A DNA stretch of 64,000 nt from Candidatus Bathyarchaeota archaeon (GCA_052246995.1 JBQPWD010000004.1:115945-179944); one strand, 5' to 3'; counted from the stretch's first letter, positions 35,998 through 45,331 are shown. The notes: generated by a model from the letters alone, not told the origin. Numbers and translations are program-made.

Positions 35998-36007
35998 AAT
36001 TTCCCAC

Positions 36008-36952
36008 CTAAACCATAATTACAGCCAATATTAAGCCTGCAAGAGACAAACCTAAAATTCCAGTTAAATACCATTTAAAAGCCTGGTCAATTCGAAAACG
36101 TGGATTTGCAGTATGAACTATAACCATTAAAACAACAACAAAAGTCATTTTTGCCAGAAACCATAAAACATTCCACGGGAAGGGTAAACCATCTCCACCA
36201 CCAAGAAAGAGGTTTGTAAACAAAGCGCTAAAAACCACCCATTTAACAAAGATTGAAAGTCTAAAAACTCCATAGAGAGGTCCACCGTATTCAACATATG
36301 GGCCAGCAATAATTTCTTGTTCAGCTTCAGATACATCAAAAGGTCTGAGAGCAAGTTTTGCAAGCAAACAGATAAATAAGACTACAGCTGCAAACGGGTT
36401 TAAAACTAAGAACCATGTATTCCTAATTTGATAATTTACAATTTCCCAGAGACTTAACGACTTCACCACGATTGCTGGAGCTAAAACTGCTAAAACAAAT
36501 GGAAGCTCTTCAGCTATAAGAAGACTTACTTCCCTACTTGCTCCAACAGCACCATACGGAGAACTTGACGAACCTCCAGCTATAACCAATGCTATTGAAG
36601 GTATTATAAGAAAGTACGCTATGACAATTACATCCCCAGCAAAGCCTACTGGAGAGGGTAAACCAAAAGGTATAAGGGTTACAGCACAAAGAAGAGAAGC
36701 TAAACTTAAAAGTGGAGCTATAACCATGTACGGCTTATAGGCAGTTATAGGGATTATCTGCTCCTTAAAGAAGAGTTTGAAAACATCTGCAAACGACTGG
36801 TAAAACGGTGGCCCCCTCCTTGATTGAATTCTGGCTTCAAGCTTTCTTTTTAACCAATCATACATTCCTCCAAGCAGAAAAGAAAACATGAGACCTGGAT
36901 ACACGATAAAACTAAAAATGCTTATTCCTATAAGCTCGTACACAATAATCAC
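36008..36952 (-). CDS. NuoH/HycD-like membrane subunit
   Basis: 314 aa, about 8 TM. Has 'RRGPPFYQSFADVFKL' (the NuoH-type RxGP...Q.faD.~Kl motif). Confidence 0.8.
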   Translation of the reverse strand: MIIVYELIGISIFSFIVYPGLMFSFLLGGMYDWLKRKLEARIQSRRGPPFYQSFADVFKLFFKEQIIPITAYKPYMVIAPLLSLASLLCAVTLIPFGLPSPVGFAGDVIVIAYFLIIPSIALVIAGGSSSSPYGAVGASREVSLLIAEELPFVLAVLAPAIVVKSLSLWEIVNYQIRNTWFLVLNPFAAVVLFICLLAKLALRPFDVSEAEQEIIAGPYVEYGGPLYGVFRLSIFVKWVVFSALFTNLFLGGGDGLPFPWNVLWFLAKMTFVVVLMVIVHTANPRFRIDQAFKWYLTGILGLSLAGLILAVIMV

Positions 36953-36953
36953 C

Positions 36954-38717
36954 TTAAACCATGGTAAACGTAAACAACATCATTAAAGTTAAAACCACTA
37001 TATACAACAAGTAGTGAGGTAGGAAGCCTGTATGGATTGCTCTAACAACCCTTAAAAAAGGATATGCTGCAAAGCTGAAGGGTGATGAAGAAACCTTTGC
37101 TTCCTCAACCTTTAGGTATGGTGGTGTAACCAATCCACCAGTAAACGGCAAAAACTTGTCAGATGTAGGAGGATATTTAAGAGGCTTTGCCGTTAGCTTG
37201 TAAATAGCAAAGATTACCACAACTCCAAAAAATAGTAGAAATGCCCCCCACGCAGCATACCAAGACCCAACATCCGTAACAAGGAAGAATAAACTTGCAA
37301 CCAACTGCACCTCGCCCCTAACAAGCATGGTTGTTGCTGGAACAATAAGATAAGAAAGCGGAAATCCTGGAACAACGCCAAAGAGAATGCATAGTGATGC
37401 TAGTATCACCATTGGAATGTACATAAGCGGAGAAACTTCTTTTACATTAGAGAGTTTTCCCGGTAGAGAAAGAAAGATGGAATGTATAACCTTCATGAAC
37501 GATATGAGCGTAAGTGCACTTACAAGCATCCCAACTCCTGCAAGTAAAGGTGCACCAGCCTGAATACATGCCTCATAGATTATCCACTTACTGCTAAACC
37601 CGCTAAACGGAGGAATTCCTGAGATTGAAAGTGAAGCAATTGTCATAGTTACGGCGGTTATAGGCATATGTCTAGCTAAACCACCTAACCTGTCCAGGTT
37701 TGTTTCACCAGTTGCATGTTCAACAGAGCCTGCACATAGATACAGTAATCCTTTATAGATTGCATGATTTAGCGAATGGAATAAACCTCCTATTATACCC
37801 AGCGGGGTTCCCAGCGAAACACCCATAACCATATACCCCATTTGGCTTATAATGTGATAGGAAAGGAGTCTCTTAACATCGCGTTGGAGAAGAGCCATGA
37901 AAACTCCAACAAGCATTGCACCTGCGCCAATCCAGGCCAAAAAATGGTTAACAGGGCTAAGTACACCATACGCATGGTAAACTATCCTAATTAGAGGAAT
38001 TAAGACAACATAAGGGCTTAGCTTAATGGTTGAAACCGCAAGCAACGCCCCCACTGGGGATGGTGCCTCGGAAAAAGCATCGGGAAGCCATGTATGTAGA
38101 AGTATTAATGGAACTTTAACCCCAAAGCCTATTACAATCAGCGCTAAGGCAGTTTTGAACAGCATTCCTTGAAGTTGCGTGTTGTACAGGCATGATAAAT
38201 ACAACGTTCCTGTTTGTAAATATAAAATGAGAATGCCGGCTAACGCGATAAAGCCCGCCAATGTACATTGAAAAATGTATTTTAACGCTGCCTCCAAAGA
38301 AGAGTTTCTTCTATAATATAGTATAAGAACTGCCGAGGAAATTGTTGTTAACTCGATAAAGATATAAAGCCATAAAAGATCCCATGAAACTGCAACACCA
38401 ACCATGCTGCCAGTAAACAGTAAGCTAAAACAATAATATTCACCAGCTTTTTCCTTTGTAAACTCTAGTGAATATATAAGTACCAAGAAACTCATAAACG
38501 CAGGAACCAGAGCTACAAACATTGTTAAATCATTAATGGAGAAAGAGAAGACTGAAGCTAACCTAACATTTCCACTAAAATTAGCAAGTATAAGTATAAA
38601 CGAGGTTAGCGAAACAAGTATAGAAAAAATTCCTGAGACTTTTCCACTTACCTTGCCTACATAATAAGCAACAGGTGCACCAACGAACAAAAGTGTCAAA
38701 GCAAGTAATAGTAACAT
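36954..38717 (-). CDS. NuoL/HycC/HyfB-like antiporter-type membrane subunit
   Basis: 587 aa, at least 14 TM. Has 'LHTWLPDAFSEAPSPVGALL' (the Mrp/NuoL motif). Confidence 0.8.
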   Translation of the reverse strand: MLLLLALTLLFVGAPVAYYVGKVSGKVSGIFSILVSLTSFILILANFSGNVRLASVFSFSINDLTMFVALVPAFMSFLVLIYSLEFTKEKAGEYYCFSLLFTGSMVGVAVSWDLLWLYIFIELTTISSAVLILYYRRNSSLEAALKYIFQCTLAGFIALAGILILYLQTGTLYLSCLYNTQLQGMLFKTALALIVIGFGVKVPLILLHTWLPDAFSEAPSPVGALLAVSTIKLSPYVVLIPLIRIVYHAYGVLSPVNHFLAWIGAGAMLVGVFMALLQRDVKRLLSYHIISQMGYMVMGVSLGTPLGIIGGLFHSLNHAIYKGLLYLCAGSVEHATGETNLDRLGGLARHMPITAVTMTIASLSISGIPPFSGFSSKWIIYEACIQAGAPLLAGVGMLVSALTLISFMKVIHSIFLSLPGKLSNVKEVSPLMYIPMVILASLCILFGVVPGFPLSYLIVPATTMLVRGEVQLVASLFFLVTDVGSWYAAWGAFLLFFGVVVIFAIYKLTAKPLKYPPTSDKFLPFTGGLVTPPYLKVEEAKVSSSPFSFAAYPFLRVVRAIHTGFLPHYLLYIVVLTLMMLFTFTMV

Positions 38718-39596
38718 TTATCCTTTCCCCTCCAGCTTGTTTAAAAGTCTTGTTGCACGAATCCTCCTAAAAATAGAGCCTAGGGATGTAGCTGAAAATC
38801 CTTGAGCTAAAGCTACAAGTTCAAGCAGGTTCATACATGGAATATCATAAACGTAGCCTTTTTCTCTAAGGAATAGTTGAGCCATTTCAAGGAAGTTGAG
38901 ACATGCAGGACATATAAGGGCTATACAGTCAGCCTCAACCTTTTTAACCTCGTCAAGCTTAACCTTAGCCCGTTCATTATAAGCGTAATCTAGGTTTAGA
39001 AAGCTTGTTGGGAAACCGCAACAGATCCTCTCACTTTCGTAAGGCAAAATCTGGCAGCCTATTACTTCGGCTATTTTTTTAAGCTTTTTCTGTAGGTTTA
39101 ACTCTTCATCAAACTTTCTAAGCTTACAACCAGGTTGAAGACAAACTTTAATGTTTGTTAAAGGCTTAACCACGGTATTTTCCAACCTTTTTAATCCTAC
39201 ATCGTCGTATAAAACTTCCAGTATGTTTTTAACATTAACTTTACCAATATATTCTAAACCATAATTTGAAAGTATTCGATTAACCTTTTCATTTACCTCC
39301 TTATCCTTCTCTAAAATTTTTTTAGCCTCAAACAAAGTTTCAAAACAACCGTTACAAACAGTAAAAACATCATAACCAAGCTTCTCAGCCAAAGCTAAGT
39401 TTCTAGCGGCCAAGGTAATCCACATCAACTCATCAACAACCCTTGGAATATCTGTTGGAGGACAGCAAGAAGCACCTTCAACATCATAAACTACAACACC
39501 AAGTTTTTCAAGAACTTTTCTGGTGGCAGATTCAACATAAGGTTGGAGCGATGGAATAAAACATCCAAGAAAAAATGAATATTCCAACCTTTTCAT
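38718..39596 (-). CDS. hdrB: heterodisulfide-reductase subunit B-like protein (two CCG domains)
   Basis: 292 aa. 'YSFFLGC...GASCCPP...VCNGCF' and 'QPGC...RICCGFP...ICPAC' give two C..CC..CxxC CCG motifs. Its stop codon abuts the start of the NuoL-like gene. Confidence 0.8.
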   Translation of the reverse strand: MKRLEYSFFLGCFIPSLQPYVESATRKVLEKLGVVVYDVEGASCCPPTDIPRVVDELMWITLAARNLALAEKLGYDVFTVCNGCFETLFEAKKILEKDKEVNEKVNRILSNYGLEYIGKVNVKNILEVLYDDVGLKRLENTVVKPLTNIKVCLQPGCKLRKFDEELNLQKKLKKIAEVIGCQILPYESERICCGFPTSFLNLDYAYNERAKVKLDEVKKVEADCIALICPACLNFLEMAQLFLREKGYVYDIPCMNLLELVALAQGFSATSLGSIFRRIRATRLLNKLEGKG

Positions 39597-39601
39597 CTTC
39601 G

Positions 39602-39892
39602 CTAATATCTTAACTTTCCTTTCTCCAAGTCAAAACCAATTTTTTCATCAAACATTAACTTTTTAGCAATATCCTGAATTTGCTTAGTTGCAAAAGTATG
39701 TTTGTATGCTGTTGGGGGGATATCAGGCAATCCAAGCTTAACCCGCCTACCTTTCCAAACCTCAAGGAATTCTTGAACATGCCCTGTTAAGAGGATATTA
39801 GATACAGGAAATCTGAATTGATGTGGAAGAAAACCCTTAATATCCTTTCTTAAAGGGTATAATCGCAAGTTTTCCTCTAAACTATTTCCCAT
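39602..39892 (-). CDS. cysteine-free 96-aa protein, possibly related to the C-terminal tail of HdrC
   Basis: First ORF of the operon, 5 nt upstream of hdrB. The pattern '..TGH..(20)..LGLPDIPPT..(25)..GFDLEKGKL' resembles, from memory, the Cys-free C-terminal extension of HdrC. There is no ferredoxin domain. Confidence 0.4.
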   Translation of the reverse strand: MGNSLEENLRLYPLRKDIKGFLPHQFRFPVSNILLTGHVQEFLEVWKGRRVKLGLPDIPPTAYKHTFATKQIQDIAKKLMFDEKIGFDLEKGKLRY

Positions 39893-39954
39893 GTTTTATC
39901 CTACACCACAAGAAGGCATAGAAGCATTTTCAAACTACTACTTTATCCTAAAAT

Positions 39955-39966
39955 TTTTATATAAAA
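39955..39966. promoter_or_regulatory. palindromic TATA-like element in the divergent intergenic region
   Basis: Perfect 12-nt palindrome TTTTATATAAAA, 63 nt upstream of the 96-aa ORF. A second CATATAAAAG follows. Confidence 0.3.
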
Positions 39967-40104
39967 TTTTTCATATAAAAGAAGTTGACATACAACATTC
40001 ACAAAACCAAAAACTGGTTAGGAGATAAAAGAACAAAATATTTTTTAGTCTTAACAATAGCAATATTATGTGATTGGCGGTTAAAAACGTGTGAGGGGAT
40101 ATAA

Positions 40105-40554
40105 ATGGTTGTTTTAGATGGCTATGAGTTTCCTGAAGACTTATACTATACACCTGAAGATGGTGTTGGAAATTCATGGGCAAGGATTGAAGCTGATGGA
40201 AGTGTAACAGTAGGGATTGATGATTTCTTCCAAAAGACAGCTAAAAGCATAAGGTACGTTGACCTTCCATTTGAGGGAGACAAAGTTGAGCAAGGTAAGG
40301 CTTTTGCAACTGTTGAGTCTGAAAAATGGGTTGGTCAAGTAACAGCCCCAGTTTCCGGTGAGGTTTTAGCTGTAAACAACAAGGTTCTTGAGAAGCCTAA
40401 ACTTGTAAATGAAGATCCCTACAGGGATGGTTGGCTTATAAAAGTTAAACCCGAAAAACTTAATGAAGAAATTAAAAACCTTGTTCATGGTGTAGACGGT
40501 ATTAAACAGCTTTACCGTAAAAGCGTGGAGAAGTATCTTAAAAAGAAGGGGTGA
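40105..40554 (+). CDS. gcvH: GcvH-like lipoyl-carrier protein
   Basis: 149 aa. 'ATVESEKWVGQVTAPVSGEVLAVNNKVLEKPKLVNEDPYRDGWLIKV' retains the lipoyl-Lys context ES-x-K...PVSGEV...DPY..GW. Confidence 0.8.
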   Translation: MVVLDGYEFPEDLYYTPEDGVGNSWARIEADGSVTVGIDDFFQKTAKSIRYVDLPFEGDKVEQGKAFATVESEKWVGQVTAPVSGEVLAVNNKVLEKPKLVNEDPYRDGWLIKVKPEKLNEEIKNLVHGVDGIKQLYRKSVEKYLKKKG

Positions 40555-40560
40555 GGTTTT

Positions 40561-41289
40561 TTGAGAATTCTTTTCTGGAGTGGCTGTCTTGCCAAAAGAA
40601 GAATGCCTGAGTCTGTTAATGCTGCATTAAAAATACTGGAAAAATTGGGATACGAGGTTGTAAAACTTGGTAATGAAGGGTGTTGTGGGGATCCGTTGAT
40701 GTTAGCAGGATACACGCAATATGCACTAGAAAATGCTAAAAAAGTTGCTGAAATGGTAAATGGTGCTAATGTTGACCTTATTGTTACAGGTTGTGCTGGA
40801 TGTTATAGAGGTTTTAACGAGTATGAGGATTACGGTGTAGAAATTCCTAAACCCAAACACATGGTTCACATTGTTGCTGAAAACCTTAATAAAATAAAGT
40901 TTAAGCAAACAGAAAAGGAAAAAATTGTATACCACGACCCTTGCGAGCTTGGACGTTGGAGTGGTGTTTACGAGGAGCCTAGAAAAGTTTTACGTAGTAT
41001 TGCTGATGTTGTTGAACCTTTGCTTTCAAAGGATGAGGCTCGTTGTTGTGGTGGAGGAGGAGGAATGCTTACAATAAAGGCTGATTTAAGTATTAGAGTT
41101 GGAGAGATAAGGATTGAAAGAGACATAGAGCCTACAGGTGTCAAAAAAATTGTTACAGCTTGTCCAGCCTGCTATTCAACTTTAAGTCTTGCTGCAGGTA
41201 AAAGATGGGTTGCAACTGGAAGAAAAAAAGATGAAAGAATAGAGGTTTTTGATTTTTCGCAGTATGTTCTCTCAAAAATGGAGGTGTAA
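40561..41289 (+). CDS. LutA/GlpC/HdrB-type CCG-domain Fe-S oxidoreductase
   Basis: 242 aa. 'WSGC...EGCCGDP...GCAGCY' and 'HDPC...ARCCGGGGG...ACPACY'. TTG start 6 nt after GGGGTGAGG. Confidence 0.75.
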   Translation: MRILFWSGCLAKRRMPESVNAALKILEKLGYEVVKLGNEGCCGDPLMLAGYTQYALENAKKVAEMVNGANVDLIVTGCAGCYRGFNEYEDYGVEIPKPKHMVHIVAENLNKIKFKQTEKEKIVYHDPCELGRWSGVYEEPRKVLRSIADVVEPLLSKDEARCCGGGGGMLTIKADLSIRVGEIRIERDIEPTGVKKIVTACPACYSTLSLAAGKRWVATGRKKDERIEVFDFSQYVLSKMEV

Positions 41290-41292
41290 AAA

Positions 41293-42570
41293 TTGAGTGT
41301 TAAAGTTAATTTTGATAAATATTTTGACGATCTTACCCAAAAATCTTATGAGGCTTTCTTGCAGAGAGCCATTGTCCGTGCAAGAACAGCATACTGGGAT
41401 AGACGTCGTGTGAACTTTCCAAAGCTTAAGTATGTTGAAAAATGGTGTGAGGAGCTTAAAGGTATTAGAAGGGTTGCTCTTGACAAGTTTCTAGACTATG
41501 TAAAGATGGCTAGAGACTGGATGGAGTCAAGAGATATTAGAACTCATTGGGCTAAAGATGCGGCTGAAGCAAACAAGATAATTTATGAATTGTTTAGTAG
41601 CTGGAGGGCTAAAAAGGTTTTTAAGGTTAAAAGCATTGCAAGCGAAGAAATTGGAATGAATGAGTATTTAGAGGAACGGGGAATTAAAGCTTGGGAAACT
41701 GATGTTGGTGCTGTTATTCTCCAGTTAATGCATGGAAAAGCTATGCATCCAACAGGTGTTTCTATTGCTGTTGCTAGGGAGGTTGCAAAAGAATATCTTT
41801 CCAAGTTTCTTGGGAAAGACCTGCCAGCGGATCCGGCAGCTTTAACTAAAGCCACTTGTGATTGGGTTAAAAAAGCAGTTCCTGAGGCAGACGCGGTGTT
41901 TTCCGGTGCTAATGCTATTGTTGCTGAAACAGGTGAAATCTGGGTTCTGGAAAATGAAGCTAATGGCAGGCTTGTACTTGCCCAACCAAAGCCCTATGTT
42001 TGTTTAGCTGGAATTGAAAAGGTTTATCCGACGAGATATGCTGCTTTGCTTTACGCATCAATTATGCCTGTCTATGTAACTGGTGCCGCAGCCATAGACA
42101 ATATAACCATTATTGGCGGTAAAAGTGCATCAAACGATATTGAAAGAGTTAGAGTTTCACCAGCAACTGGACATGAAGAAATACATGTTGTCTTCCTTGA
42201 TAATGGAAGAACAGCAATGCTTAAAGATCCAGACTTCCAGGTAATGCTTACATGTTTAAAATGTGGTGCATGCTTAATGGATTGTCCAATGTGGAATACT
42301 GTTGCAGGATACTTTGGTGAACATGTATACATGGGGGCTTTTGGGATTGTATGGACAGCATTTACCAGAAGCTTAGAGGATGCAGCACCTCAAGCATATA
42401 CATGTGTACTTTGTGGTAGATGTAAGGATATGTGCCCAATGGGTATAGACCTTCCGAGGTTAATTAAAAGGTTACGTCAAAAACTTGTTGAAAAAGGGAT
42501 AGTTCCGCAACAGCTTCAGGTAATGTCTGAAAACATATTGAAGTATGGTTCACCTTACGGCTTAACATAA
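41293..42570 (+). CDS. LutB-like LUD-domain protein with C-terminal 2x[4Fe-4S] (HdrC-type) domain
   Basis: 425 aa, colinear by eye with B. subtilis LutB. Has 'ETDVGAVILQL', 'NAIVAETGEIWVLENEANGRL', 'VVFLDNGR', 'CLKCGACLMDCP' and 'CVLCGRCKDMCP'. TTG start after GGAGGTG. Confidence 0.8.
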   Translation: MSVKVNFDKYFDDLTQKSYEAFLQRAIVRARTAYWDRRRVNFPKLKYVEKWCEELKGIRRVALDKFLDYVKMARDWMESRDIRTHWAKDAAEANKIIYELFSSWRAKKVFKVKSIASEEIGMNEYLEERGIKAWETDVGAVILQLMHGKAMHPTGVSIAVAREVAKEYLSKFLGKDLPADPAALTKATCDWVKKAVPEADAVFSGANAIVAETGEIWVLENEANGRLVLAQPKPYVCLAGIEKVYPTRYAALLYASIMPVYVTGAAAIDNITIIGGKSASNDIERVRVSPATGHEEIHVVFLDNGRTAMLKDPDFQVMLTCLKCGACLMDCPMWNTVAGYFGEHVYMGAFGIVWTAFTRSLEDAAPQAYTCVLCGRCKDMCPMGIDLPRLIKRLRQKLVEKGIVPQQLQVMSENILKYGSPYGLT

Positions 42571-42665
42571 AGCTTCCAATTTTCCAACTTTCTTTTTTCT
42601 AATAAGAAATTTTCTTTATTGTTATCATTATTTTTTGTTTAAAGCCAATTGGAAGGTTAAATTTA

Positions 42666-43922
42666 TCAGATGCTTAGCTTTGCTATGGAAAACTCATCTT
42701 TAAACATTTCCTCTATTCTTATTAACTCATTCAACTTTGCTGTTCTTTCTCCGCCTACAACTCCAGTCTTAATTATTGGACAGCTAAAAGCTATTGAAAG
42801 GTGGGCTAAGTGCGTGTCAACGGTTTCACCAGACCTGTGAGATAAAACTGGAATATAGCCTGCAGATTTTGCAAGCTTTACTGTTTCCAACGTATCGGTT
42901 AATGTTCCAACCTGGTTAGGTTTAATTATCAAGGAGTTTGCAGCTTTAAAGTTTACACCAATTTTAAGCCTATCTTTGTTTGTAACAAAAATGTCGTCTC
43001 CACATATTAAACAATTTTTTGCCTTTCTTGTAAGTTCAGCAAAACCTTCAAAATCATCCTCATGAAGAGGATCTTCAACATATACTAGATTAAATCTATC
43101 AATAAGCTCCAAAACATACTCTATCTGTTCATCCTTACTTCTACGCTTACCCTCGCCAACATAGTTGTAACATTTAAGCTTAGAATCCCATAATGATGAA
43201 GATGCAACATCTAAGCCAACTCTAACTTCAACACCAGTTTCACTTCCAACCTCTCTAGTAGCTTCAAAAACAACTTCAAGAGCCTTCTCATTTTTTAGTG
43301 GAGGAGCCCATGCACCCTCATCACCCCTGCCACCAGTAAATACTGGGACATTTTTTTCTAAAAACTCACCAATTTTTCTATAAACCTTAATGTTTGCGTG
43401 GTAAGCCTCAAAAAAAGTTTTGGCACCAACAGGCAAAACAAGAAATTCCTGAATGTCAGGCGCACCCTTTCCAGCGTGTTTACCGCCACCTACCACGTTT
43501 CCAAGCGGAAGAGGAAGAAATGTTTCTTTAAAGCATTTAAGCGAAGAAAATAAAGGTTGCTTTAAGGTTGAAGACGCGGCTTCAGCTACAGCTAAAGAAA
43601 CAGCATATGCTGTGTTTCCACCTATAAAGCTAAAATTGCTTGTACCATCAACCTCATGTAGAGTTTTATCTACAAGTTCTTGGTTGTTCGCATCCAATCC
43701 AACAATTTTAGGTTTTATGATGCTGTAAACTCTTTCAACAGCCTTTTTCACGCTGTCCTCAGGAAAGGCTACAACTTCGTGTATTCCCTTACTTTTTCCA
43801 GCTGGAGCAGCTGCCCTACCAAAACCACCTAAAGTTTTAACCTCAACTTCTATTGTTTCTTCACCACGACTGTTAAAAATCCTTCTAGCTCTAATGTCGT
43901 TTATAATTGTCTGAGAATTCAA
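42666..43922 (-). CDS. eno: enolase
   Basis: 418 aa. Has 'ARRIFNSRGEETIEVEV', 'SHRSGET' and 'IKTG'. Confidence 0.9.
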   Translation of the reverse strand: MNSQTIINDIRARRIFNSRGEETIEVEVKTLGGFGRAAAPAGKSKGIHEVVAFPEDSVKKAVERVYSIIKPKIVGLDANNQELVDKTLHEVDGTSNFSFIGGNTAYAVSLAVAEAASSTLKQPLFSSLKCFKETFLPLPLGNVVGGGKHAGKGAPDIQEFLVLPVGAKTFFEAYHANIKVYRKIGEFLEKNVPVFTGGRGDEGAWAPPLKNEKALEVVFEATREVGSETGVEVRVGLDVASSSLWDSKLKCYNYVGEGKRRSKDEQIEYVLELIDRFNLVYVEDPLHEDDFEGFAELTRKAKNCLICGDDIFVTNKDRLKIGVNFKAANSLIIKPNQVGTLTDTLETVKLAKSAGYIPVLSHRSGETVDTHLAHLSIAFSCPIIKTGVVGGERTAKLNELIRIEEMFKDEFSIAKLSI

Positions 43923-43985
43923 AACTGCCCACCTACATGTACTAAGTAAATGATAAAAAATAAGATTTAAGGTAAACGACTATTT

Positions 43986-44204
43986 TTAAACTTCACCAGT
44001 TTTACGTATACCACTTGAAAACTTTAAAACTTCATCAATAATTTCAACGTGGGATATAAGCATCCTACGACAACAGTATCTTTTAACTCCAAGTTCATCT
44101 AAAACTTTTGCTGGGTCCTCTCCAGCCTTAACACGGCTGTTAAATTCTTCCCACTTATCCCCAACTACAGCACCACAACTAAAACATCTAATAGGGATGA
44201 TCAA
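43986..44204 (-). CDS. rpoN: DNA-directed RNA polymerase subunit N (Rpo10)
   Basis: 72 aa. '[10 protein letters not shown]...RYCCRRM'. TTG start. Confidence 0.9.
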
Positions 44205-44458
44205 GATAACCCATTCCTATTTTTAGGTAAGAGTTGAGGAGAGATATAAACTTAAGGTTTAACCTCAAATTCACGCCAACTTCTTAACAAGTTATATCAA
44301 ATAGCTCATTAGCTAATTAAAATACAACAATCAAAGAGTATTCGCTTGTAACCCTAAAAGCTAGACAGGATATAAGGCTAAATTTGATAACCAGGTTGTA
44401 AAGAAACGAAAAAATTATTCTCCTAGATGGTGAAATTTACAAAGAAAATTGATAAAAA

Positions 44459-44869
44459 CTACCTATAAGATTTTTGTCTTCTTCTTCTTGCACCAGGTCC
44501 GCCAAACTTTTTCATTTCTCTTCTTCGCGGGTCTCCTGTGACCATCGACCTGTCATAACTTGTAAACAACTTTTTAAGCCTAGAACTTCTAAACCATTCA
44601 ACAAGCCCCTTGGCAATACTCATTCTGACAGCTTCAGCTTGACCCATAAAACCTCCACCTTTAACTTTTACGTCAATATCAACCTGCTTCCACAGGTCTC
44701 CACTAAGCAGTAAAGGTTCCATAATTTTCCATCTTACAATTTCAGGTGTGCAGACCTCTAGCGGTATCCTGTTTATCGTTATCCTTCCACTTCCAGGCTT
44801 AACTACAGCTTTAGCTATTGCTGTCTTTCTTTTACCAACTGTAACTATTGGAAGCTTTCTAGTGGACAT
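44459..44869 (-). CDS. rps9: ribosomal protein uS9
   Basis: 136 aa. 'GKRKTAIA', '[10 protein letters not shown]', and a C-terminal 'RRRQKSYR'. Confidence 0.9.
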
Positions 44870-44878
44870 TTTTTACAC

Positions 44879-45331
44879 CTAAACTTCTTTCCAGCCTATC
44901 TCCTTTGCAATTAATCCTAAGTGTACATACTTACCTTTAAGCTTTGAGATTGAAACTTCAGGTATTGTTTCAATTTTTCTACCAGAAACTTCAGGCGGGA
45001 TGTTGATATAAACTTTTAAACGTTTAAATGCTTCACGTCCTTTAGCTTTATCCATAGGAAGCATTCCACGTACAACTCTTCTAAGTATGCCATCAGGTCT
45101 ACGTGGATGAATAGGTCCATATTTTGGGTTAACAACACTACCAATTTCAAGGAACTTTTTAAACTCCCTAACTATGCTTCTTTTTTCACCTGAAATTACA
45201 GCTTTTTCAGCATTCACTATGGCTATTTTTTCACCATTTAAAAGCCTTTTGGCAACTATACTTGCAAGTCTACCCATAATTAAGCCTGAGGCGTCTATTA
45301 TTGTTGCATCATGAGGGATTTTTGAAACCGT
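44879..45331 (-). CDS. rpl13: ribosomal protein uL13 (5' end uncertain, see finding)
   Basis: 'GRLASIVAKRLLNGEKIAIVNAEKAVISG'. The first ATG is at 45277, but the conserved 'IIDASGLI' is encoded in frame upstream. I extend the gene to the ACG codon 7 nt after GAGGTGAGG. Confidence 0.8.
   Translation of the reverse strand, partial: TVSKIPHDATIIDASGLIMGRLASIVAKRLLNGEKIAIVNAEKAVISGEKRSIVREFKKFLEIGSVVNPKYGPIHPRRPDGILRRVVRGMLPMDKAKGREAFKRLKVYINIPPEVSGRKIETIPEVSISKLKGKYVHLGLIAKEIGWKEV

Follow-up and report, generated by a model that had tools for sequence, protein, structure and literature searches.

A GcvH-like putative lipoyl carrier encoded with LutA- and LutB-like proteins in a Bathyarchaeon

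We analyzed a 64,000-nt stretch of DNA from Candidatus Bathyarchaeota archaeon (GCA_052246995.1 JBQPWD010000004.1:115945-179944; hereafter, the window). At positions 40105-42570 it carries three closely spaced genes, encoding a GcvH-like protein (GcvH_w), a LutA-like protein (LutA_w), and a LutB-like protein. We find that GcvH_w is distinct from the H proteins of the glycine cleavage system (GCS) and that members of its clade are often encoded beside genes for CCG-domain proteins. We propose that a lipoyl group on GcvH_w might serve as a redox partner of LutA_w, although the linkage of the three genes is itself sporadic.

A gcvH-like gene coupled to lutA- and lutB-like genes

All three genes lie on the plus strand. 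The gcvH-like gene (40105..40554) starts with ATG and encodes 149 amino acids, whereas the lutA-like gene (40561..41289; 242 amino acids) and the lutB-like gene (41293..42570; 425 amino acids) both start with TTG. Our open reading frame (ORF) map agrees with the initial annotation of this DNA in placing gaps of only 6 and 3 nt between them. Reading of the sequence likewise bears out that each TTG lies just after a Shine-Dalgarno-like motif: GGGGTGAGG runs over the gcvH stop, 6 nt ahead of the lutA TTG, and GGAGGTG lies 5′ of both the lutA stop and the lutB TTG.

GcvH_w has the H-protein fold with its lipoyl-lysine hairpin (PF01597, 4e-35; H proteins in the PDB match at 1e-21). Its lipoyl-lysine context, TVESEKWVGQVTAPVSGEVL, is intact, as had been noted earlier, and reads ESEK74W...PVSGEV. 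The predicted lipoyl-lysine codon, that of Lys74 (40324..40326, plus strand), aligns to the lipoyl-lysine position of the family model. The protein scores 103.5 against TIGR00527, under the equivalog cut-off of 115.85, and 124 bits against the subfamily model NF002270 (cut-off, 117 bits). It contains no cysteine and has a predicted isoelectric point (pI) of 5.18, vs 4.1-4.9 for gcvP-adjacent H proteins.

LutA_w contains the two CCG motifs first ascribed to it (PF02754 twice, 1e-30): C9-X31-C41C42-X35-C78xxC81 (40585..40803, plus strand) and C128-X33-C162C163-X37-C201xxC204 (40942..41172, plus strand). All 10 of its cysteines sit in these motifs, and all are invariant across 30 LutA-like homologues. 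The motifs (residues 9-81 and 128-204) fit the HdrB-type pattern CX31-39CCX35-37CXXC and are predicted to ligate non-cubane [4Fe-4S] clusters. We compared an AlphaFold2 model of LutA_w (predicted local distance difference test score, 94.5) with known structures. Template modeling (TM) scores were 0.74 with the integrative model of Bacillus subtilis LutA (9a6l), 0.75-0.79 with HdrB chains, and 0.84 with EtfD of M. smegmatis (9ojn), which suggests that LutA_w has the LutA/HdrB fold. No experimental LutABC structure was found in the PDB.

The third protein proved colinear with LutB, as initially described: residues 22-407 align with positions 5-381 (of 432) of the TIGR00273 LutB/LldF profile, at 283 bits and thus below the cut-off of 445. 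It combines an N-terminal LUD domain (PF02589, 3e-27, residues 74-302) with an HdrC-like 2x[4Fe-4S] ferredoxin domain (Fer4_8, 3.5e-12) that matches HdrC (5odc_C). The ferredoxin domain holds two CxxCxxCxxxCP motifs (C321-C331 and C371-C381; 42253..42438, plus strand), of which 8/8 cysteines are invariant in our alignment of LutB orthologues (A1). LutA_w and the LutB-like protein also match the two halves of the LdhH model NF045670, the N-terminal half being matched by the LutB-like protein (275 bits) and the C-terminal half by LutA_w (108 bits).

In an environmental RNA-Seq run (X3), near-identical contigs cover 40376-40995, 41020-41451, and 41732-42567, crossing both gene junctions at a depth of 9-26, vs 2-7 on the side of the neighboring hydrogenase genes. 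This is consistent with a single transcript for the trio, with DNA carry-over into the run as a possible alternative source of the contigs. Two further runs labelled metatranscriptomic (X1 and X2) were rejected as expression evidence; their contigs of 34-53 kb, with flat depth over 36000-45000, are DNA-like.

Upstream of the trio, an A+T-rich divergent intergenic region of 212 bp with TATA-like boxes (39893..40104; sequence reading and ORF map) is shared with a minus-strand operon. The first two genes of that operon (38718..39892, minus strand) encode a 96-amino acid protein and an HdrB-type CCG protein (TIGR03288, 230 bits), the latter with the cysteine spacing of the first CCG motif of LutA_w. 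They head a set of membrane-bound hydrogenase genes with NuoL-like and NuoH-like subunits at 36008-38717 (Proton_antipo_M and NADHdh). The 96-amino acid ORF (39602-39892, minus strand) matches just the C-terminal tail of HdrC (TIGR03290, positions 78-144) and lacks a ferredoxin domain; at another locus (L137), HdrB is likewise preceded by a short ORF of this kind. Downstream, the stop codons of lutB and enolase are separated by a T-rich spacer (42571..42665; sequence reading), which is the likely operon end, and the enolase gene (42666-43922, minus strand; ORF map and Pfam) converges on the trio.

Lipoate and heterodisulfide reductase genes of the genome

The 1.53-Mb assembly (17 contigs, 36% G+C) is rated 100% complete, and its nearest public relatives are labelled uncultured Bathyarchaeia. 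The trio had been described as lacking LutC, gcvT, and gcvP, and we find that this is true of the whole genome and not just of the window. GcvT (PF01571) and GcvP (PF02347) gave zero matches in a search that returned matches in control genomes. Free-standing LutC is likewise absent genome-wide, the only LUD proteins being the LutB-like protein and a fused 684-amino acid LdhH-like protein whose gene adjoins malic enzyme. Neither an Ldh_1 nor an Ldh_2 homologue was found in the genome.

A genome-wide search for biotinyl/lipoyl-type domains returned four, namely two biotin carriers in a decarboxylase cluster and two H-like proteins; thus, no E2 lipoyl domain is encoded. Since T, P, and E2 proteins are all missing, the two H-like proteins are the sole candidates for lipoylation and are unable to serve glycine cleavage. 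The search for lipoate ligases proposed in the initial annotation located a LipS1-LipS2-gcvH2-Lpl cluster (C6:107717-111004; by homology to Pfam-checked Ignisphaera genes) and a second Lpl-like/LipS2-like pair (C3:126090-127888). The only plausible role that we can infer for GcvH_w is to carry lipoate on the predicted Lys74, loaded by the genome's LipS1, LipS2, and Lpl. The second pair lies ~7 kb from an HdrA-HdrC-HdrB set (C3:113079-119124), where no H-like gene was detected.

A canonical mcrBGA operon with mcrC is present at C1:242548-248733 (McrA TIGR03256, 969 bits; cut-off, 768). Two relatives (G001 and G002) had no McrA match; if, as matching contig numbers and coordinates lead us to suppose, they are identical to assemblies G061 and G073, they are of the same genus and the same family and are 97% and 95% complete, respectively. 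The heterodisulfide of coenzyme M and coenzyme B (CoM-S-S-CoB) probably exists in this organism, to judge from these genes, and an assumption that it does not was refuted by the genome's own mcrA. Yet 49 of 50 other LutAB-bearing genomes lack McrA, so CoM-S-S-CoB is unavailable to most LutAB-linked CCG proteins; the sole exception is a genome of ANME-1. Just 3′ of the mcr genes lies a flavoprotein gene of the CoA-disulfide-reductase/Nox family, with the single-Cys motif VPCAIPF. The genome's Hdr modules comprise HdrA twice, HdrBC twice more, and four HdrD-like proteins, and three GlcD-like proteins are also encoded.

Genomic neighbors and phylogeny of GcvH-like proteins

We collected every strong GcvH-family match in the 50 LutAB-bearing genomes and in the Bathyarchaeon's own, which gave 80 distinct H-like genes from 51 genomes. 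Neighbors were labelled by phmmer with Pfam-checked queries and, beyond those examples, by our own queries and simple ORF calling. Within 3 kb, gcvT or gcvP flanked 20 of the 80 genes, a CCG-domain gene 29, lipoylation genes only 9, and none of these 22. No H-like gene (0/80) had both a GCS and a CCG neighbor. A CCG gene (HdrB, HdrD, LutA, or GlcD-CCG) lay within 3 kb of 29/60 non-GCS copies vs 0/20 GCS copies (Fisher test, P = 3e-5), in lineages that are not independent and genomes that were picked for LutAB, which adds one CCG gene apiece; the crude random expectation is ~3%. GcvP is missing in 14/50 of the LutAB-bearing genomes, among them all those in which gcvH abuts lutAB. One GcvP neighbor label (L135) is probably a false phmmer match, since that genome has no PF02347 match.

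In trees of H proteins built without reference LbpA sequences, GcvH_w stands apart from the bona fide, gcvT/P-linked H proteins, one of the two comparisons that the initial annotation had recommended. The GcvH_w clade (support 97/82 in a careful build; Shimodaira-Hasegawa-like approximate likelihood ratio, 96 in a larger quick build) takes in 25 of 26 CCG-adjacent H proteins, and the other clade takes in 19 of 20 gcvT/P-adjacent ones. The finding that had been named in advance as fatal, gcvT or gcvP just outside the window together with canonical GcvH orthology, was not obtained: neither gene occurs anywhere in the genome, and the clade is a separate one. The lack of T, P, and E2 proteins and this phylogeny together support the conclusion that GcvH_w is not a glycine-cleavage component.

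The GcvH_w clade is diverse in its gene neighborhoods. Besides GcvH_w and the Ignisphaera copies, it holds copies beside GlcD-Fer4 and a LutA-like CCG protein, copies in gcvH-hdrCBA and gcvH-CCG arrangements, and Bathyarchaeia copies with HdrD, a membrane protein, and UbiA. Its bacterial members lie beside GlcD-CCG (Cloacimonadota) or beside a fused GlcD-Fer4-CCG protein and Lpl (Syntrophobacterales). In three genomes labelled Methanomethylicia, Nezhaarchaeales, or related, the LutA-like CCG protein encoded with GlcD-Fer4 beside gcvH scores 187-193 bits to LutA_w. A GlcD-type FAD oxidase with 2x[4Fe-4S] and a separate or fused LutA-like CCG domain was seen beside gcvH at loci L130:8078-11136, L132, L134, L141:3905-8619, L165, L168, and L170. 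This oxidase is a second dehydrogenase head on the CCG/H-protein theme, in archaea, Cloacimonadota, and Syntrophobacterales.

In three genomes (G005, G004, and G010; loci L131, L133, and L136), an H paralogue and a CoA-disulfide-reductase-like flavoprotein head an HdrB-hydrogenase operon, with Lpl, LipS1, and an HdrD-like gene alongside. These genomes lack McrA and GcvP and are labelled Methanomethylicia, Nezhaarchaeales, or related. The 446-amino acid flavoprotein that follows gcvH in these Ehd operons was considered as an E3-like protein and rejected; its NCBIfam scores and single-Cys motif are those of CoA-disulfide reductase/Nox, not Lpd.

In other Bathyarchaeia, GcvH_w orthologues (61-73% identical) keep the same neighborhood near enolase and rpoN and are followed by an Ldh_1-family dehydrogenase, not by lutAB. 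The Ldh_1 gene fills the slot between gcvH and enolase that lutAB holds here (L096:7492-8415, L097:7509-8447, L142, and L192). The gene sets that face gcvH in these sister genomes are of two types, one with a multi-transmembrane protein, an HdrD-like protein, UbiA, HdrA2, Lpl, and a radical S-adenosylmethionine (radical-SAM) gene, and the other with hydrogenase maturation genes.

A lipoyl protein as a possible partner of CCG enzymes

HdrB-like CCG proteins are widespread in non-methanogenic anaerobes, where, to our knowledge, their physiological disulfide is mostly not known, and we know of no solved mechanism for the LutABC-type lactate dehydrogenases. Because the putative lipoyl carrier shares an operon with a LutA/LutB-type oxidoreductase, in a genome with neither a GCS nor a 2-oxoacid dehydrogenase, protein-bound lipoate becomes a candidate disulfide partner of HdrB-like (CCG) enzymes. 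We propose, with a probability of roughly 0.45, that lipoyl-GcvH is a protein-bound dithiol/disulfide shuttle served by the CCG site of LutA, which would make the trio a lipoyl-protein-dependent LutAB-type oxidoreductase operon. The initial annotation had already suggested the lipoyl arm as the CCG substrate; the enrichment of the GcvH_w clade beside CCG and lipoylation genes fits that idea.

In the proposed mechanism, GcvH_w would carry lipoate as outlined above, and the products of genes 2 and 3 would form a LutA/LutB-type complex that does without LutC. Within the LutB-like subunit, the LUD domain may act on a small molecule, for which a 2-hydroxy-acid/2-oxo-acid couple like lactate/pyruvate is the most likely candidate. 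Three observations suggest such a substrate: the LutB/LdhH homology, the parallel GlcD-CCG-gcvH clusters, and the Ldh_1 gene that relatives carry in the syntenic position, while the Bathyarchaeon's own genome has neither Ldh_1 nor Ldh_2. Electrons would pass through the two [4Fe-4S] clusters of the LutB-like protein to the pair of HdrB-type cluster sites in the LutA-like subunit, whose CCG site would reduce or oxidize the dithiolane of lipoyl-GcvH. As a protein-bound "heterodisulfide," lipoyl-GcvH could then shuttle two electrons between the LutAB-like enzyme and other CCG enzymes, the first candidate being the HdrB subunit that belongs to the membrane [NiFe] hydrogenase of the divergent operon. 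We infer the lipoylation, the physical contact between GcvH and LutA, the LUD substrate, and which way electrons flow. The complementary pI values of whole GcvH and LutA/LutB were set aside as a weak hint.

Support for the shuttle comes from the tight coupling of the trio and from its recurrence in Ignisphaera beside lipoylation genes. The missing classical lipoyl enzymes, the H-protein phylogeny and neighbor census, the parallel GlcD and Hdr arrangements beside gcvH, the invariant CCG cysteines, and the rarity of McrA in LutAB-bearing genomes count in its favor as well. A profile search of reference genomes with the LutB orthologue group returned 80 loci, at nearly all of which, in archaea and bacteria, a CCG gene abuts LutB, mostly without LutC; the LutAB pair is thus the conserved core. 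Where gcvH adjoins this core, two loci are from close relatives (LutB 87-91% identical, gcvH upstream) and four are from Ignisphaera genomes (LutB 36-38% identical, gcvH immediately downstream). The Ignisphaera order is lutA-lutB-gcvH, followed by a ligase gene of the LplA type and a pair of radical-SAM genes resembling those for LipS1 and LipS2. Neither GcvP nor McrA was found in these four genomes.

Several observations weigh against the shuttle. Conservation of the linkage, the lack of which the initial annotation had itself named as refuting, did not hold up: gcvH is adjacent at only 6/78 LutB-centered loci, and the trio is sporadic, being confined to two genera (g1 and g4) of a single Bathyarchaeia family and to Ignisphaera, where it arose separately. 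By a rough estimate, two independent origins among ~40 lineages are only modestly unlikely by chance (P of ~0.007-0.02). LutB orthologues at 43-61% identity come from metagenome contigs and from genomes labelled Methanomethylicia, Nezhaarchaeales, Atabeyarchaeia, Brockarchaeota, and ANME-1; the 6-8 kb around them contain no gcvH, and in some the gene order is lutB-lutA. In genus g6, which belongs to the same family, a CCG-LutB-like pair occurs although the genus is devoid of H proteins. Other GcvH_w orthologues (71-73% identical) adjoin Ldh_1 and HdrD or hydrogenase genes without lutAB; LutAB is therefore not a constant partner of the H protein, and the conserved neighbors of GcvH_w are the divergently oriented HdrB or HdrD modules. 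Nor does co-occurrence of LutAB and GcvH across genomes, a check proposed at the outset, help. It was dropped as evidence, since the 49/50 genomes that have both carry no information when a GcvH-family gene is present in 235/251 genomes of the class.

The presence of mcrBGA also weighs against the shuttle, since it makes CoM-S-S-CoB a possible substrate of the organism's own CCG sites. CCG domains also work with quinones, and the second-best structural match of LutA_w is the quinone-using EtfD (9ojn). Textbook values put the lactate/pyruvate couple near -190 mV and H+/H2 at -414 mV. With lipoamide at -290 mV (PMC6067878), electron transfer from lactate to lipoamide is uphill (-190 vs -290 mV); therefore, oxidation of lactate to give dihydrolipoyl, or on to H2, would need coupling to an ion gradient through the membrane hydrogenase. 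The opposite flow, from H2 through lipoyl to a 2-oxoacid, would be downhill.

The most serious alternative, possible though on balance doubtful, is that the LutAB-like pair is a self-contained 2-hydroxyacid (lactate-type) dehydrogenase that uses CoM-S-S-CoB, a quinone-like carrier, or ferredoxin as its acceptor. The partners of the H protein would then be HdrB-hydrogenase or HdrD modules, and gcvH would be merely an upstream neighbor because lutAB was inserted between gcvH and enolase. Sister genomes that keep gcvH by enolase and rpoN, with Ldh_1 in the lutAB slot, fit this, and the lack of Ldh_1 and Ldh_2 in the Bathyarchaeon's own genome suggests that one lactate/malate dehydrogenase has taken the place of another. 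Close LutB orthologues are confined to genera g1 and g4 among 251 genomes of the class (in a second g4 genome, gcvH-lutA lies at a contig end). Other LutAB pairs have no gcvH and lie by malic enzyme, Ldh_2, acyl-CoA dehydrogenase, amidohydrolase, or a ribbon-helix-helix (RHH) regulator. The g6 pair, the mcrBGA genes, and the likeness of the LutA_w model to the EtfD fold add to the case. However, the 6-nt coupling and the junction-spanning RNA-Seq contigs suggest that gcvH is on the same transcript, Ignisphaera has an independent version of the trio beside lipoylation genes and lacks Mcr, and GlcD-type dehydrogenases with LutA-like CCG partners also adjoin gcvH.

Improbably, GcvH_w could instead serve only to relay or store lipoyl groups, or act as a thiol antioxidant, with no specific redox partner in the operon. 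GcvH is cited as having such a relay role in Bacillus and humans (reference 90 as cited in PMC9723716), and the paralogue gcvH2 sits within the lipoylation cluster. Nevertheless, a relay would have no acceptor in a genome without E2 or any further lipoyl domain, and the enrichment beside CCG genes would be left unexplained.

It is also improbable that GcvH_w is an LbpA-type sulfur carrier, whose dihydrolipoyl form would bind sulfane sulfur and present it to the CCG sites, as proposed for sHdr. GcvH_w is homologous to the LbpA/GcvH family, and the LipS1/LipS2/Lpl pathway that accompanies LbpA (PMC10332631) is present in the genome. Its pI of 5.18 also exceeds the 4.5 reported for GcvH proteins, LbpA being less acidic (bioRxiv 10.64898/2026.10.01.755906). 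On the other hand, both cysteines that the same work describes as conserved in LbpA are missing from it, and its host, rather than being a sulfur oxidizer, is an anaerobic archaeon that bears Mcr. The neighbors are lutA, lutB, and the hdrC-tail/hdrB/hydrogenase genes, with no hdrC1B1AHC2B2-type cluster at the locus (a genome-wide search for sulfurtransferases was not made). Finally, an ordinary glycine-cleavage H protein, for which only the NF002270 score just above its cut-off speaks, is almost certainly excluded by the TIGR00527 score below cut-off, the position outside the gcvT/P-linked clade, and the complete genome without GcvT and GcvP, unless the T and P proteins lie in unassembled DNA.

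The closest known system to the proposed lipoyl shuttle is sHdr-LbpA of Hyphomicrobium denitrificans, Thioalkalivibrio, Aquifex, and Sulfolobales (Cao et al. 2018, PMC6067878; Tanabe et al. 2023, PMC10332631), which also ties a non-GCS, GcvH-homologous lipoyl carrier to HdrB-type CCG proteins and Lpl-LipS1/LipS2. By analogy, the locus described here would follow the same logic of carrier, CCG partner, and lipoylation genes with different partner enzymes: a LutA/LutB-type pair and a hydrogenase-bound HdrB instead of HdrC1B1AHC2B2. The carriers and hosts also differ, in cysteine content and in sulfur oxidation, as set out above. From LutABC/LldEFG of Bacillus subtilis and Shewanella, which share the order of a two-CCG LutA-like protein and a LutB-like LUD and 2x[4Fe-4S] protein, the trio differs in lacking LutC, in its LutB-like score (283 bits vs the equivalog cut-off of 445), and in the H protein in the operon. 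Desulfovibrio LdhH/LdhL (NF045670; a quinone-type L-lactate dehydrogenase) has the same LutB-like and CCG modules. There, a single fused polypeptide, LdhH, is paired with a small subunit resembling LutC, whereas here the modules are split, in reverse order, and joined by an H protein. HdrB of methanogenic HdrABC (5odc; Wagner et al. 2017) has the same two five-Cys CCG motifs and fold, but LutA_w is 50 residues shorter and would receive its electrons from a LUD-ferredoxin fusion, not from HdrC/HdrA.

In the Culexarchaeia Ehe cluster (PMC9723716), GcvH also lies beside an HdrB-linked membrane [NiFe] hydrogenase, but there is no LutAB module, and neither a phylogeny, a census, nor expression data are included in that paper. 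Kohtz et al. (2022) speculated there that this GcvH carries a disulfide for HdrB (PMC9723716). The earlier statement that the unit is undescribed stands only in part: the literature we searched held no paper joining GcvH with LutB, nor a lipoate-binding protein with a LUD domain, but the idea of GcvH as a disulfide carrier for HdrB is older.

A broader extension of the shuttle is tentative and, we think, rather unlikely to hold. Lipoylated GcvH-like proteins might be a general protein-bound "heterodisulfide" carrier for CCG enzymes (HdrB, HdrD, LutA, and GlcD-linked) in anaerobic archaea and bacteria. LutAB and GlcD-CCG 2-hydroxyacid dehydrogenases would feed or drain the lipoyl pool, and HdrB-coupled membrane hydrogenases would tie it to H2 and the ion gradient. 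If so, this would identify the thiol/disulfide couple that is missing for Hdr-like enzymes in non-methanogens, and there would be a hint as to how the flavin-free LutAB enzymes work. The association of H proteins with CCG genes does reach well past sulfur oxidizers, into Bathyarchaeia, relatives of Methanomethylicia, Ignisphaera, Asgard archaea, Cloacimonadota, and Thermodesulfobacteriota. Were the shuttle to exist, lipoate would gain an electron-carrier role in the energy metabolism of organisms without any classical lipoate enzyme. The operon offers a compact, expressible three-protein system for a direct test of lipoyl-GcvH as a CCG substrate.

Two minor observations concern relatives. Directly upstream of lutA-lutB in the nearest gcvH-free orthologue group lies a gene for an RHH (CopG) protein of 66-74 amino acids (L009:7039-7239, L010, and L090:5006-5224), which may be a dedicated regulator. 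In addition, several GcvH-like matches in two Bathyarchaeia genera contain one in-frame stop codon each, TGA in g20 (e.g., G123, G168, and G264) and TAG in g23 (e.g., G070, G230, and G287), consistently within each genus; these could reflect alignment read-through past the gene end, or recoding.

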